Shown here: positions 25,720-53,178 of the stretch, in pieces
How positions within the stretch are numbered: the first letter of the stretch is position 1
Layout of the letters: every line of letters starts with the position of its first letter
NCBI GenBank assembly: GCA_030647485.1
Contig: JAUSJT010000002.1
Span: 1 to 58,849, forward strand
Origin: a bacterium
GTDB lineage: Bacteria; Patescibacteriota; Minisyncoccia; Minisyncoccales; UBA10102
Direction: 5' to 3'
DNA length: 58,849 nucleotides
Program-made: the position numbers and the translations under genes
Notes under the pieces: model-generated
Databases searched by the model: none
The model's input: only the letters and a program-made list of their open reading frames with translations
What the model was told of the DNA's origin: nothing

Positions 25720-25904
25720 AGAGTAGTTTCAAATTTATTTATTAGTAGTTATAGTTTACTATACTTACTGGTGGGGATAAGTTTTTTTCATTCCTATTGT
25801 GCGTCTATATTATAGTGTGGGGTGGCTGTGGATACGCGAGGGTAAAATATGCCGCATGCGAAGGGATAGAAAATTTATCCACGGCGCCCCCCGCGTTATC
25901 CACT
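25720..25904. promoter_or_regulatory. oriC, dnaA-dnaN part: AT-rich tract plus DnaA boxes
   Basis: Boxes TGGGGATAA 25772, TGTGGATAC 25827, TTATCCACG 25875, TTATCCACT 25896 (overlapping the dnaA stop); AT-rich stretch about 25730-25800. Confidence 0.75.
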
Positions 25905-27400: not shown

Positions 27401-27431
27401 TGTGGAGAATATGGGGATAATATGTGAACAA
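27401..27431. promoter_or_regulatory. DnaA-box cluster upstream of dnaA
   Basis: TGTGGAGAA 27401, TGGGGATAA 27412, TGTGAACAA 27423; same orientation, 11-bp period. Confidence 0.65.
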
Positions 27432-39684: not shown

Positions 39685-39717
39685 TGCTTTATTGTACCAG
39701 ATTCTCCGCATTTTATC

Positions 39718-39757
39718 CTTAATTCCATTAAGTTGTGGATAACTTAATGGGATTAAG
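39718..39757. repeat. 40-bp double-palindrome/DnaA-box element, copy A (contains the rsmA stop)
   Basis: CTTAATTCCATTAAG-TTGTGGATAA-CTTAATGGGATTAAG. Confidence 0.9.
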
Positions 39758-40610
39758 TTTGAGGGAGGGATTTTGCGAGAGCTATCCAATCCTCTACGGA
39801 AAGAGTCTCTGCTCTTTGAGTAGGTTGGACATCAACTTGGCTAAGCCAAGTTTCTACTTGGTGTCTTGAAAGTTTTAGCCCCTGCATAAGGTTGTTGCCA
39901 AGCTGCTTTCTTGGCTGTTTGAATCCCGCCTTTACCACCGTAAAAAACTTAATCTCATTAAATTGCGGATAACTTAATCTCTTTAAGTTGTGAGGGACTA
40001 TCTTAAGAATTGCGGAATCTACTTTTGGTTGTGGCCAAAAGCAGCCCTTCTTTACATATGAGACAATAGAGGGTTTTCCATAGACCTGTACCGAAACCGC
40101 CAGGAGACTCATTTCCGGTGGCTTTGCGCATATCCTTTGGCTAACCTCCTTTTGGACCATCAAGATCATAAGCTCTGGCTTATTCTCTGCTTCCAGAAAC
40201 ATGCGTATGACAGGAGAGGTAATATAGTAGGGCAGGTTTGCCACCACTTTATATCCTGTGTCCTTAATGAAATTAAGTTTCCTAGAACTTAATTTCATTA
40301 AGGAGAGGATGTCGCCCTGGATGATTACTATATTAGAGAGATCTTTGGCGGTTTCTTTTAGAATATCCACCATGACAGAGTCTTTCTCTACCGCAATCAC
40401 CCGTTTTGCACCTAGCGCAAGCTCCCGGGTTAGGGTTCCAATACCTGGCCCTATTTCAAGCACAGTATCTGATTTCTTAAGGCTCGCTGCCTTAAGAATA
40501 TCGTCAAGCACTCCTTTTGAGGTAAGAAAGTTTTGCCCCAAGCCCTTTTGAGGTTTCCTATCCTGCCGTTTGAGGAGTTCTTTTATAGTTTTTATAGAAA
40601 ATAGATCCAT
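39753..40610 (-). CDS. rsmA: 16S rRNA adenine dimethyltransferase
   Basis: KGLGQNFL, VLEIGPGIGTLT, AVEKD, VANLPYYITSP, MVQKEV, PKVDSA, RKQLGNNL, RAETLS. Confidence 0.96.
   Translation of the reverse strand: MDLFSIKTIKELLKRQDRKPQKGLGQNFLTSKGVLDDILKAASLKKSDTVLEIGPGIGTLTRELALGAKRVIAVEKDSVMVDILKETAKDLSNIVIIQGDILSLMKLSSRKLNFIKDTGYKVVANLPYYITSPVIRMFLEAENKPELMILMVQKEVSQRICAKPPEMSLLAVSVQVYGKPSIVSYVKKGCFWPQPKVDSAILKIVPHNLKRLSYPQFNEIKFFTVVKAGFKQPRKQLGNNLMQGLKLSRHQVETWLSQVDVQPTQRAETLSVEDWIALAKSLPQT
39948..39987. repeat. 40-bp element, copy B (in frame within rsmA)
   Basis: CTTAATCTCATTAAA-TTGCGGATAA-CTTAATCTCTTTAAG; encodes LKRLSYPQFNEIK. Confidence 0.85.
40263..40302. repeat. 40-bp element, copy C (in frame within rsmA)
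   Basis: CTTAATGAAATTAAG-TTTCCTAGAA-CTTAATTTCATTAAG; extends to a perfect 19-bp IR (40261-40304). Confidence 0.88.
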
Positions 40611-40621
40611 TGTTATGGTTA

Positions 40622-40667
40622 TGCCTAAGCCTCGCTTAGTTATCCCCACCTAAGTGAGGCTTAGGCA
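40622..40667. repeat. 40-bp element, copy D (upstream of rsmA)
   Basis: TGC-CTAAGCCTCGCTTAG-TTATCCCCAC-CTAAGTGAGGCTTAG-GCA; 18-bp stem with one wobble. Confidence 0.85.
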
Positions 40668-40682
40668 GGGAAGGGTCTGGGG

Positions 40683-51512: not shown

Positions 51513-52093
51513 ACCTGATCCCTACGGTTATAGAAAAGAGCCAGTACGGAGAGCGGGCATATGACATCTATTCCCGCCTATTGAAAGACCGTATTATTTT
51601 CTTGGGAGGCGCGGTGAACGATATGGTTGCAAATTCCATCATTGCCCAAATGTTGTTCTTGGCGTCCAAAGACCCGGCAAAACCCATTCAGTTTTACATC
51701 AACACCCCGGGAGGAATGGTTACCTCGGGCCTGGCCATTTATGACACCATGCAGTATATGAAGTGCCCGGTGTCTACAGTGTGCGTGGGCATGGCAGCTT
51801 CCATGGGAGCAGTTCTACTTGCCGCAGGCGCAAAGGGAAAGCGCTTTGCGCTCCCCAATAGCCAGATTATGATTCACCAGCCTATGGGAGGGGCGCAGGG
51901 TCAGGCCAGTGAAATTGAGATTACCGCAAAGCAGATAGTGAAATTAAGAGAGCAGATGAATGGCATTCTTGCAAAGCATACTGGCCAGCCCCTGGAGGTT
52001 ATCTCAAAAGACACTGATCGTGACTTTTACCTCACCGCAGAAGAGGCAAAGACGTACGGTATCATTGATGAGGTGCTTGGGTCCAAGCCCTAA
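51509..52093 (+). CDS. clpP: ATP-dependent Clp protease proteolytic subunit
   Basis: [39 protein letters not shown]. Confidence 0.98.
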
Positions 52094-52094
52094 T

Positions 52095-52156
52095 CCTGTG
52101 GATAACTTAGCTAAGCTAAGTTTGCCTCTCTTCACCGAGAGGTTTTTTGTGTGGTA
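52095..52156 (+). repeat. 62-bp direct repeat, left copy (DnaA box + palindrome + terminator)
   Basis: 54/62 identical to 53068-53129; includes the CCTCTC-TTCACC-GAGAGG-TTTTTT terminator. Confidence 0.9.
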
Positions 52157-52198
52157 AACTAACTGTACTGTAGTGCTTATACGTGGTATAATAATGGT

Positions 52199-52483
52199 AT
52201 GGAGACGCTAAAGAAAAAGTCCATGTTTTGGGATGTTGATGCTATAGATACTAAAAAGAACGAGCAATTTATCATAGGCAGAATACTGGATTTTGGAGAT
52301 GCAGATGACCTTGAATGGGCGATGAGTATATACGGGCCAGAGAAGGTGAAAAAGGGGGTGCTAGAGAGCAAAACATTAAGCAGGAAGTCTCTCTCTTTTT
52401 GGTGTCAGTATTTTTATCTTGATCCATCACAATGTATAAGCAAACTCTTGGGGAAAACACAGAGCGCGTTCTGGAAAAGATAG
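52199..52483 (+). CDS. DUF6922-like putative antitoxin
   Basis: FWDVD..FIIGRIL.FGD..DLEW..YG..SLSFW; paired with the nucleotidyltransferase. Confidence 0.75.
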   Translation: METLKKKSMFWDVDAIDTKKNEQFIIGRILDFGDADDLEWAMSIYGPEKVKKGVLESKTLSRKSLSFWCQYFYLDPSQCISKLLGKTQSAFWKR

Positions 52484-53061
52484 CAATGAGCGGAGTTCTG
52501 GGTCAGTTCTATCTAGCTGGCGGAACCGCCCTGGCGCTTTTGCTCGGCCATAGGAAATCCGAGGACTTGGATTGGTTTTCGGCTAAGCCATTCTCCAATG
52601 GTACCATTAAGAAGAAACTCTCCGAATCTGGTATGTTTCAACTTACAGGAGAAGAAGAAGGTACGATTCACGGTGTTCTAGATGAGGTGAAGATAAGTTT
52701 CTTGCGCTATGATTATGAAATGCTGTTTCCGTTCGTTCGTTTTGAGAGCGTGAATGTCGCAGAGGAACGCGATATTGCCGCGATGAAGATCGACGCATTG
52801 TCTTCGCGTGGGAGTAGAAAGGACTTTGTGGATATTTATTTTCTTTTGCAGAAGTACACTCTTTCCGAGTTGATAGGATTTTTTGAGAAAAAATACAAAA
52901 ACATACAATTCAATAAACTCCATATCTTAAAGAGTTTGGTCTTCTTTGATGATGCAGAATTAGAACCCATGCCCATCATGATGCAAGTAGTGAGCTGGGA
53001 GGAAATAAAACGGAAAATACAGGGAGAAACGACCGCAATGTTAAAGCTGGGTATCGTTTGA
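52432..53061 (+). CDS. AbiEii/AbiGii-family nucleotidyltransferase toxin
   Basis: FYLAGGTALALLLGHRKSEDLDWF, DIAAMK, SRGSRKDFVDIY, KSLVFFDDAE. Confidence 0.88.
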   Translation: MYKQTLGENTERVLEKIAMSGVLGQFYLAGGTALALLLGHRKSEDLDWFSAKPFSNGTIKKKLSESGMFQLTGEEEGTIHGVLDEVKISFLRYDYEMLFPFVRFESVNVAEERDIAAMKIDALSSRGSRKDFVDIYFLLQKYTLSELIGFFEKKYKNIQFNKLHILKSLVFFDDAELEPMPIMMQVVSWEEIKRKIQGETTAMLKLGIV

Positions 53062-53067
53062 GCGACA

Positions 53068-53129
53068 CCTGTGGATAACTTAAAGAGATTAAGTTTGCCT
53101 CTCTTCACTGGGAGGTTTTTTGTGTGGTA
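53068..53129 (+). repeat. 62-bp direct repeat, right copy
   Basis: See left copy; the terminator stem is retained through a G-U substitution. Confidence 0.9.
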
Positions 53130-53178
53130 TACCCCCACACCAACACAGGTTTGCTGTTTGTTTGGTGTGGGGGTATAC
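53127..53178. repeat. 17-bp perfect inverted repeat (CCCCCACA family)
   Basis: GTATACCCCCACACCAA / TTGGTGTGGGGGTATAC. Confidence 0.85.

Follow-up and report, generated by a model that had tools for sequence, protein, structure and literature searches.

What kind of element occurs four times within 950 bp in and around the gene rsmA of a reduced bacterial genome, twice as part of the translated gene, and by what process did it come to be there? The question concerns contig JAUSJT010000002.1 of assembly GCA_030647485.1, from an uncultured groundwater bacterium of the order Minisyncoccales (GTDB UBA10102). All 58,849 nucleotides of this contig form the window analyzed here. The window is contig C3 of the genome, termed G000 below, which comprises 630 kb in four contigs. 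By the source names of its close homologs, G000 falls within the Parcubacteria, near Candidatus Wildermuthbacteria. An earlier note on the window had proposed an undescribed family of micro-elements, or a tandem-dimer binding site linked to DnaA or a recombinase. As judged from sequence comparison, the four units are probably members of a REP/BIME/REPIN-RAYT-type family of miniature palindromic repeats. Repeats of this kind are already known. What is new is that the units are ultra-short, carry a DnaA-box linker instead of the GTAG tag, and lie partly within genes. The description as an undescribed family is thus correct for the family, but not for its kind, which has the hallmarks of REP/BIME/REPIN repeats, including a RAYT-type Y1 gene bracketed by the same units.

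Four units at rsmA

The window was searched for the pattern CTWAR-N5-YTWAG-N10-CTWAR-N5-YTWAG with up to two mismatches. Exactly four matches were found, at 39718-39757, 39948-39987 (one mismatch), 40263-40302 and 40625-40664 (elements 1 to 4, Table 1), which agrees with the four units of common geometry in the earlier note. The mean for the shuffled window was 0.01 matches, and none of 100 shuffles reached four. Each unit consists of a 15-nt arm, a 10-nt linker and a second 15-nt arm, together 40 bp. The 15-nt arm alone occurs nine times in the window, with 1.26 expected. Four copies per 950 bp far exceed the density in G000 of ~14 per 630 kb (Poisson probability, corrected for the number of windows, ~5e-6).

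The linkers had been given correctly, and three of them resemble a DnaA box: read on the minus strand, TTGTGGATAA is TTATCCACA without a mismatch; TTGCGGATAA and TTATCCCCAC have one mismatch each, and TTTCCTAGAA is without a box. The arms of element 3 are perfectly inverted (100%, 19-nt arms), and those of elements 1 and 4 match with one mismatch each (94%). Complementarity within three elements, as claimed before, was therefore slightly overstated for elements 1 and 4. The arms of element 2 are direct, not inverted (74%). When folded as single-stranded DNA, elements 1, 3 and 4 form a long hairpin (z=-6.6, z=-9.6 and z=-7.1, respectively), while no long hairpin was found for element 2 (z=-1.7).

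The placement of the units relative to rsmA was also as first described, with element 4 ahead of the ATG, elements 3 and 2 in frame in variable loops, and element 1 providing the stop codon. Element 4 sits between the divergent genes for RsmA and a LysM/M23 peptidase, and its arm type is that of the units bracketing a RAYT-like gene, at G000:C2:6841-6880. In alignments, the lengths of RsmA loops 1 and 2, the sites of elements 3 and 2, differ from ortholog to ortholog. The rsmA stop codon TAA (39753-39755) falls within one arm of element 1; the other arm terminates in TAAGGA, 5 nt ahead of the ATG of the next gene (39711).

Table 1. Coordinates of the elements and associated features. Positions are those of the window unless another contig is named.
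Feature	Position	Strand	Description
Element 1	39718..39757	-	CTTAATCCCATTAAG-TTATCCACAA-CTTAATGGAATTAAG on the minus strand; linker is a perfect DnaA box
Element 2	39948..39987	-	direct arms, linker TTATCCGCAA; translated in frame as LKRLSYPQFNEIK, RsmA loop 2
Element 3	40263..40302		perfect inverted doublet CTTAATGAAATTAAG-N10-CTTAATTTCATTAAG, non-box linker; translated as LMKLSSRKLNFIK, RsmA loop 1
Element 4	40622..40667	+	GC-richer arms, GCCTAAGCCTCGCTTAG-TTATCCCCAC-CTAAGTGAGGCTTAGGC; upstream of the rsmA ATG
rsmA	39753..40610	-	16S rRNA dimethyltransferase, 285 aa; Pfam PF00398 RrnaAD, names per sources; host of elements 2 and 3
Half copy	52097..52120	-	TGTGGATAA, then arm CTTAGCTAAGCTAAG, then terminator-like hairpin; left direct repeat
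Half copy	53070..53093	-	TGTGGATAA, then arm CTTAAAGAGATTAAG; right direct repeat
dnaA	25896-27260	-	open reading frame in the window
Four DnaA-box-like nonamers	25772..25904		3' end of dnaA; two more at 27401-27420, upstream of dnaA
Other four RAYT-like Y1 genes	G000:C2:222156-222836, C2:52831-53535, C2:26422-27135, C1:78729-79454		all end ...L(F/T/M)LE

The assembled contigs of run X1 have a 3-7-fold higher depth over elements 1 and 4 (39688-39781, 40581-40674), and contigs break at element 4; palindromes fragment short-read assemblies. Both the depth spikes and the breaks are to be expected of repeats. One low-depth contig from a relative skips 39704-39783. No clean strain polymorphism at the units was seen in the assembled contigs of this run.

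Arm structure and copies in the genome

The genome-wide pattern search suggested in the earlier note yielded 13 strict full copies in G000. Arms of the form CTWA-N7-TWAG number 92, against ~17 expected, or ~146 per Mb. The spacing from one arm start to the next has two sharp peaks, one at 25 nt (14 pairs, 10-nt linker), the other at 21 nt (6 pairs, 6-nt linker), and the genome holds ~21 doublets. Perfect TTATCCACA occurs 27 times where ~5 are expected, and ~15 of these copies follow directly on an arm. The 6-nt linkers carry no box. Half copies always consist of an arm plus a box, and those reported at 52097-52120 and 53070-53093 are present. They are part of direct repeats of ~62 bp (52060-52160, 53033-53135) that contain a box, an arm, a terminator-like hairpin (GCCTCTCTTCAC-GAGAGG) and a T-run. 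The repeats, which differ mostly in the arm centre, bracket a two-gene nucleotidyltransferase/antitoxin-like cassette (52199-53061).

A structure alignment was made from 45 units of eight genomes, with 500 shuffles as the control. The arm forms a mini-hairpin: its stem has 6 bp, its loop 3 nt, and its feet are invariant (5'-CT...AG-3'). The mini-hairpin positions are 95.7% paired and the 15-bp helix between the arms is 90.7% paired; no shuffle was as high in either case, and the pairing collapses in slid registers. The central three pairs of the inter-arm helix are formed in 62-78% of the units, and a minority of the doublets is direct. The letters of the stem covary, with UA 23 and AU 17 times at columns 3/13, and GC 21, AU 17, CG 5 and GU 2 times at columns 5/11. 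Invariant across the units are the linker and the CT...AG feet. As single-stranded DNA, a doublet gives a hairpin of 15-19 bp. An Rfam search with the palindrome returned a sub-threshold match to a plant miRNA alone. That the fold is kept more than the sequence, in a family of micro-elements, is borne out by the genome-wide enrichment, the covariation of the arms and the presence/absence alleles in relatives described below.

The same geometry, two palindromic 15-bp sites that recur every 25 bp, could be read as the target of a dimeric DNA-binding protein or a tyrosine recombinase. Each arm is indeed a 5-N5-5 palindrome, and the 15+6+15 variant resembles the geometry of lox/FRT. However, the letters of the half-sites covary as Watson-Crick or GU pairs of four types, where a protein would fix one sequence. 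Genera differ completely in their arms (G018, for example, has CTTGCC..GGCAAG), orthologous sites gain and lose copies, and all six copies of the 15+6+15 variant lie inside housekeeping open reading frames. The tandem-dimer site of the earlier note is hence highly improbable; its suggested link to a recombinase is borne out if a Y1 HUH transposase is meant.

Units in related genomes

The junction AG-TTATCCACA-N-CT is present in 10-16 copies in each of six genera that belong to one taxonomic family; the reversed control gave 0 copies. The linker is constant and the arm sequence is specific to the genome: CTTAACCCCGTTAAG in G020, CTAAGCTAAGCTTAG in G002, CTAAACCGAGTTTAG in G005 and CTTGCCTCCGGCAAG in G018. 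Approximately ten identical 40-mers are found in G020. That copies are identical inside one genome but arms differ from genome to genome points to copying, not to independently selected sites. In 400 genomes drawn from the remainder of the phylum, the strict pattern was not found.

For rsmA the comparison comprised proteins 68-80% identical to that of the window, and the DNA of three of them. Empty-site alleles, which the earlier note had proposed to look for, exist. The site of element 4 is empty in P0013 (...caaccccaga/gatat/ATG) and filled in G000 and P0002. Element 1 is absent at its site in P0013 and P0002 and partial in P0018; a junction lies just after rsmA in G002. RsmA loop 1 is found in several states. 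P0013 has a single arm, CTTAGACAGGCTAAG, and P0002 has this arm plus exactly 21 nt, that is a 6-nt linker and an inverted arm. Two arms with a 10-nt linker are present in G000, arm-TTATCCACAA-arm in P0018, and arm-box-arm in G020, where the unit is that genome's own master 40-mer. In RsmA loop 2 orthologous units with the same boundaries and different arm centres occur in G000, P0013 and P0002, and no unit is present in P0018, P0008, P0012 and P0017. The peptidyl-tRNA hydrolase Pth of G000 has 11 residues more than that of G005, at a 36-bp unit.

Element-free versions of RsmA loop 2 (P0008, P0012, P0016; L013, L025) read LINADRKLINADI / QINADKKQINADL, a direct repeat at the peptide level of the same length as the unit-encoded loop.

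RAYT-like Y1 genes

G000 has five Y1_Tnp (PF01797) genes of ~230-260 aa, with mutual identities of 30-47%. All five are bracketed on both sides by their own type of ~20-bp hairpin, and homologs in G002, G004 and G005 are likewise bracketed by their own matched hairpins. The gene that goes with the units at rsmA is RAYT#3 (G000:C2:6967-7686). Upstream it carries CTAAGCCTCGCTTAG-TTATCCCCAC-CTAAGCGAGGCTTAG and a further overlapping arm pair, and downstream a single arm. The hairpins around the other four genes (Table 1) differ, e.g., GTTAGACCTCGGAGGTCTAAC and CCTGTGCA...TGCACAGG. In G002, G011 and G018 (two copies), orthologs of RAYT#3 with 70-74% identity have hairpin-TTATCCACA-hairpin units on both sides, and the arms of these units are the dominant arm type of the respective genome. 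The downstream gene of RAYT#3 is common to G000, G002, G004, G011 and G013, which indicates vertical inheritance. With one copy per type, the genes do not behave as a multi-copy insertion sequence. Homologs of the RAYT#3 clade number 2058. At least 10 junction copies were found in five of eight genomes with a RAYT#3 ortholog and in one of 33 without (Fisher p = 4e-4).

A decayed second RAYT#3-like gene (MIRKKFEQGNIYHVYNRGVEKRDVFL...) was observed just upstream, at G000:C2:6640-6800. It is flanked by the box-bearing arms CTAAATTCCATTTAG-TTATCCACAG and CTAAATCTCATTTAAG.

The proteins pass the Pfam threshold for Y1_Tnp. In NCBIfam the best match is REP_Tyr_transpos (E = 7e-12 to 8e-5), closer than IS200; two paralogs are unmatched. 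Compared with the PDB, an AlphaFold2 (AF2) model (pLDDT 87) is most similar to 4ER8, a complex of E. coli RAYT with REP, and the ISDra2 and IS608 transposases follow closely.

Some Y1 proteins (subclass 2.1) have a C-terminal DnaA_C-like DNA-binding domain (PMC6006769). A RAYT-like protein that reads the box by its own helix-turn-helix, similar to domain IV of DnaA, was considered as a candidate and ruled out by Pfam, profile and fold searches. No Pfam match to Bac_DnaA_C was obtained in the RAYT-like protein even at E = 10. An hhalign comparison of the C-terminal profile with domain IV of the organism's DnaA gave a probability of 0.06%. A fold search with the model returned Y1 transposases alone and no match to DnaA. 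The C-terminal extension is also present in paralogs whose hairpins have no box.

It is unlikely that another enzyme or process spreads the mini-palindromes, be it homing-like repair with a small nuclease of the GIY-YIG or PD-(D/E)XK type, or template switching or replication slippage at hairpins, and that the Y1 genes are mere frequent landing sites. The many copies in G020, where no Y1 gene was detected, could be taken that way, and fold-back synthesis could produce the 21-nt difference between one-arm and two-arm states. Landing by chance does not agree with five Y1 genes, and orthologs in many genera, being bracketed on both sides by matched hairpins. Nor does it agree with a bracket type of RAYT#3 that tracks the dispersed type of each genome, with the association given above, or with invariant CT feet that fit the rule of cleavage between C and T (C/T) of Y1 TnpA-REP.

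Position of copies relative to genes

The reading frames of the units differ by type. In the A/T-type box unit one of six frames is open, LIPLSYPHLNGIK (LxxLSYPHLxxxK). The GC-type box unit, as in element 4, has none of six frames open. Two frames are open in the 6-nt doublet (PKRGLGIPKPRLG; KRGLGIPKPRL), and also two in element 3. LSYP(H/Q)L peptides are encoded in RsmA, UvrC and others, and PKRGLGIPKPRLG peptides in TsaD, LigA, UvrC and Pth. Open reading frames with internal doublets encode RsmA, UvrC, TsaD, LigA, Pth, ArgRS and a protein of 444 aa. All 6-nt-linker doublets (6 of 6) lie inside genes. Only 3-4 of 15 box-type doublets do so, though 91% of the genome consists of open reading frames (p = 3e-9), and box units pile up on or just past stop codons. 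The sense orientation of the translated copies, their peptides, the depletion from gene interiors and the accumulation at stop codons all follow from the limits on open frames. A stop codon is donated because only one of six frames is open.

Arms ending in ...TAAGGA(T/G) often stand 3-8 nt ahead of a start codon (window 39706-39722; G000:C2:7698-7720). The repeat may thus supply Shine-Dalgarno-like sequences besides stop codons.

The positions next to genes also bear on an element that acts at the RNA level, with terminators, stabilizers of mRNA 3' ends or RNase III sites between cistrons driving the distribution. In arrays of co-directional genes, many copies do lie 2-20 nt past stop codons; the long stems are stable, and after each of the half copies (52097, 53070) comes a terminator-like hairpin with a T-run. 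Secondary roles of this kind are described for E. coli REPs in PMC3333891 and PMC3733652. However, most units are without a T-run, the A/T-type stems are weak, and no Rfam family was matched. Frame selection alone accounts for the position at gene ends. Outside coding regions the box may point either way with respect to genes (8 forward, 3 reverse), and terminators inside essential open reading frames would do harm. A primary function in RNA is accordingly considered rather improbable.

DnaA box and origin region

The constant linker TTATCCACA(C) agrees with the DnaA-box consensus at 9/9 positions and is the same across genera; a match by chance is unlikely. Approximately 15 element-borne boxes are perfect TTATCCACA and fit TTWTNCACA, as does the variant TTATTCACA. 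The variant TTATCCCCA departs from TTWTNCACA at position 7, yet recurs in the probable oriC. This probable origin is the cluster of DnaA-box-like nonamers at dnaA (Table 1). The nonamers there are of the TTATCCACA/TTATCCCCA type, so that the linker agrees with probable boxes of the organism itself.

That the cluster at rsmA is a part of oriC was considered and is not supported. The cluster lies 13 kb away from dnaA and its boxes, which occupy 25.8-27.4 kb, and the rsmA units of relatives are independent of this context. Relative to the direction of replication deduced from GC skew, ~10-11 boxes are forward and 3-5 reverse, which is too weak to be used. Within genes, the fact that just one frame is open accounts for the whole sense bias of the box. 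The GC skew changes sign near 24-30 kb, at dnaA and the box cluster, and again near 46 kb, where the gene orientation switches too. This suggests an inversion of ~30-46 kb adjoining the origin.

Four TG(T/G)GGATAA boxes were observed within 150 bp directly upstream of mraZ (G000:C2:217177-217330). They are followed by the arm CTTAGCCAGGCTAAG, whose TAAGGA end is 3 nt ahead of the mraZ ATG. These boxes could be an operator of MraZ, sites for DnaA regulation of the dcw operon, or debris of the repeat. The cluster was dropped as a candidate oriC, as it is not adjacent to dnaA.

The agreement with the consensus bears on a further explanation, namely that the units are selected host DnaA-binding sites for titration or regulation, like datA/DARS or promoter boxes, that are not mobile and whose palindromes help to present the box. 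The linker is the sole part conserved across genera, the variants TTATTCACA and TTATCCCCA also occur in the probable oriC beside dnaA, and the dnaA/oriC window holds 5 of ~20 element-borne boxes. The TTATCCACA nonamer is also identical to the high-affinity box of DnaA-box clusters (oriC, datA, DARS). Unlike in those clusters, a single box is present per unit, and the boxes are dispersed, vary in position between relatives, have covarying hairpin flanks and lie partly in open reading frames. Against selected host sites also stand the gain and loss of copies at orthologous positions and the replacement of arms by the genome's own dominant arm. Doublets with 6-nt or non-box linkers and single arms belong to the same family, and the ~10 identical 40-mers in G020 point to copying. 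Moreover, units bracket a Y1 transposase gene in several genera, and many copies lie within essential genes. Host DnaA sites are hence an improbable origin of the units.

Within the repeat family preferred here, the box may have one of two roles: it may replace GTAG as the tag by which this RAYT clade recognizes its repeat, or the linker may bear a genuine DnaA site. It is possible, though doubtful, that the box has a function in the repeat. A domesticated REPIN population of ultra-small CPR genomes would then recruit DnaA, which would either open the duplex for hairpin extrusion and the action of the Y1 protein, coupling copying to the initiation of replication, or be titrated by the dispersed units to the benefit of the host, as at datA.

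Proposed mechanism and points against it

The E. coli enzyme TnpA-REP cuts at C/T beside inverted REPs and in the linkers between them and rejoins the strands, and BIME units are added, removed and exchanged in vitro (PMC3333891). By analogy, the RAYT#3 enzyme would bind single-stranded DNA at the folded unit, cleave it at the CT feet and join the strands again, by which arms would be copied, swapped, added or deleted. Selection then filters the copies, which are retained in sense orientation in tolerant loops of proteins, in last codons, where they donate the stop, or between genes. Between genes, the arm end TAAGGA could act as a ribosome-binding site. The states found at the rsmA sites match the activity of TnpA-REP in vitro, and both the CT feet and the CC/T at the junction of linker and arm (...CACC/TTAA...) fit the C/T rule.

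Several points weigh against a REP/REPIN-RAYT family. The enzyme part of this reading rests on the association of gene and repeat and on the likeness to E. coli TnpA-REP, from which the activity is inferred. The RAYT-like proteins, ~240 aa with a C-terminal extension, remain below the NCBIfam cut-off for RAYT, with at most 45 bits against 80. In G020, which has 16 junction copies, no Y1 gene was detected in an assembly that is 82% complete. The canonical REP tag is lacking; neither GTAG nor CGTC occurs in the aligned units, which instead have the 9-10-nt TTATCCACA(C) between the arms, one per doublet. The intragenic share is large, at ~40% of the doublets, which are translated, unlike classical extragenic REPs. 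The match of the box to the consensus leaves room for a host function that could maintain the copies by itself.

A last point concerns protein lengths. The RsmA alignment proposed in the earlier note in search of element-sized indels does reveal gain and loss at the element sites of relatives, but the lengths of loop 2 barely differ from element-free orthologs. The element-bearing loops in RsmA loop 2 and Pth are just 2-7 residues longer than in most of these orthologs. A simple 40-bp insertion model was rejected for both sites, as it fails to explain such similar lengths. Replacement or exchange of units fits better; the lengths call for replacement, or for insertion followed by deletion.

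Comparison with known repeat families

REP/BIME/REPIN repeats with RAYT (TnpA-REP) are described in Enterobacteria and Pseudomonas (PMC3333891, PMC3116915, PMC2817692, PMC3479197). Like these, the units studied here are short imperfect palindromes at high density whose inverted doublets give a long hairpin, and a protein site can lie in the linker that joins two units. Both also have an HUH-Y1 gene, vertically inherited in a syntenic position, with these repeats on either side, as well as several RAYT/REP pairs per genome, units added or removed at one locus, and a CT at the hairpin foot that fits the C/T rule. Unlike in the known systems, the arms measure 15-19 nt and the doublets 36-40 bp, and the host is a Candidate Phyla Radiation (CPR) bacterium whose 0.63-Mb genome has five RAYT-like paralogs. 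In the literature searched, no paper was found that links REP, REPIN or RAYT to CPR or Parcubacteria.

BIME-1 (RIB-RIP) of E. coli has the order REP, IHF site, REP. IHF recruitment is also mentioned in PMC3479197. The box-type units described here likewise consist of two inverted palindromic units that bracket a linker matching the consensus of a host DNA-binding protein, which here would be DnaA, not IHF.

The analogy to coding palindromes of Rickettsia, drawn in the earlier note, is apt. Rickettsia palindromic elements (RPE), reportedly treated by Ogata et al. in 2000, are said to be ~100-150 bp long and without an associated transposase gene or DnaA box. Both sets are palindromic repeats of reduced genomes that sit in frame within essential genes, where translation turns them into surface loops, probable ones in the case of the units here; unlike RPE, the units here have only 36-40 bp and are linked to a cognate Y1 gene. 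Small dispersed repeats (SDRs) were reportedly described by Elhai et al. in 2008 in Nostoc and other cyanobacteria. SDRs are not known to have an enzyme or a conserved protein-box linker. They resemble the units of G000 as very small hairpin repeats (under 30-40 nt) that are single, doubled or nested, genic and intergenic, and grouped in lineage-specific families, and differ from them in the link to a Y1 gene and in the conserved box linker found here.

Significance

REPIN-RAYT systems are discussed as long-lived, vertically inherited 'replicators' and are described mainly in Proteobacteria with large intergenic space. Here a genome of 0.63 Mb, ~91% of which is open reading frame, retains five RAYT-like genes and their repeats. 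The repeats are squeezed to 36-40 bp with a stop-free frame, and can thereby persist within essential genes. Assemblies break at the units, marker proteins of CPR genomes show them as apparent 'insertions', and genes receive stop codons and Shine-Dalgarno-like sequences from them. With two mini-hairpins, CT feet and a 10-nt tag, the unit is a defined short substrate for the biochemistry of a new RAYT clade. The DnaA-box linker provides a concrete, testable link from a domesticated transposon to the control of replication. If true, a role in DnaA titration would explain the vertical retention of the repeat and its transposase gene in genomes that shed spare DNA.

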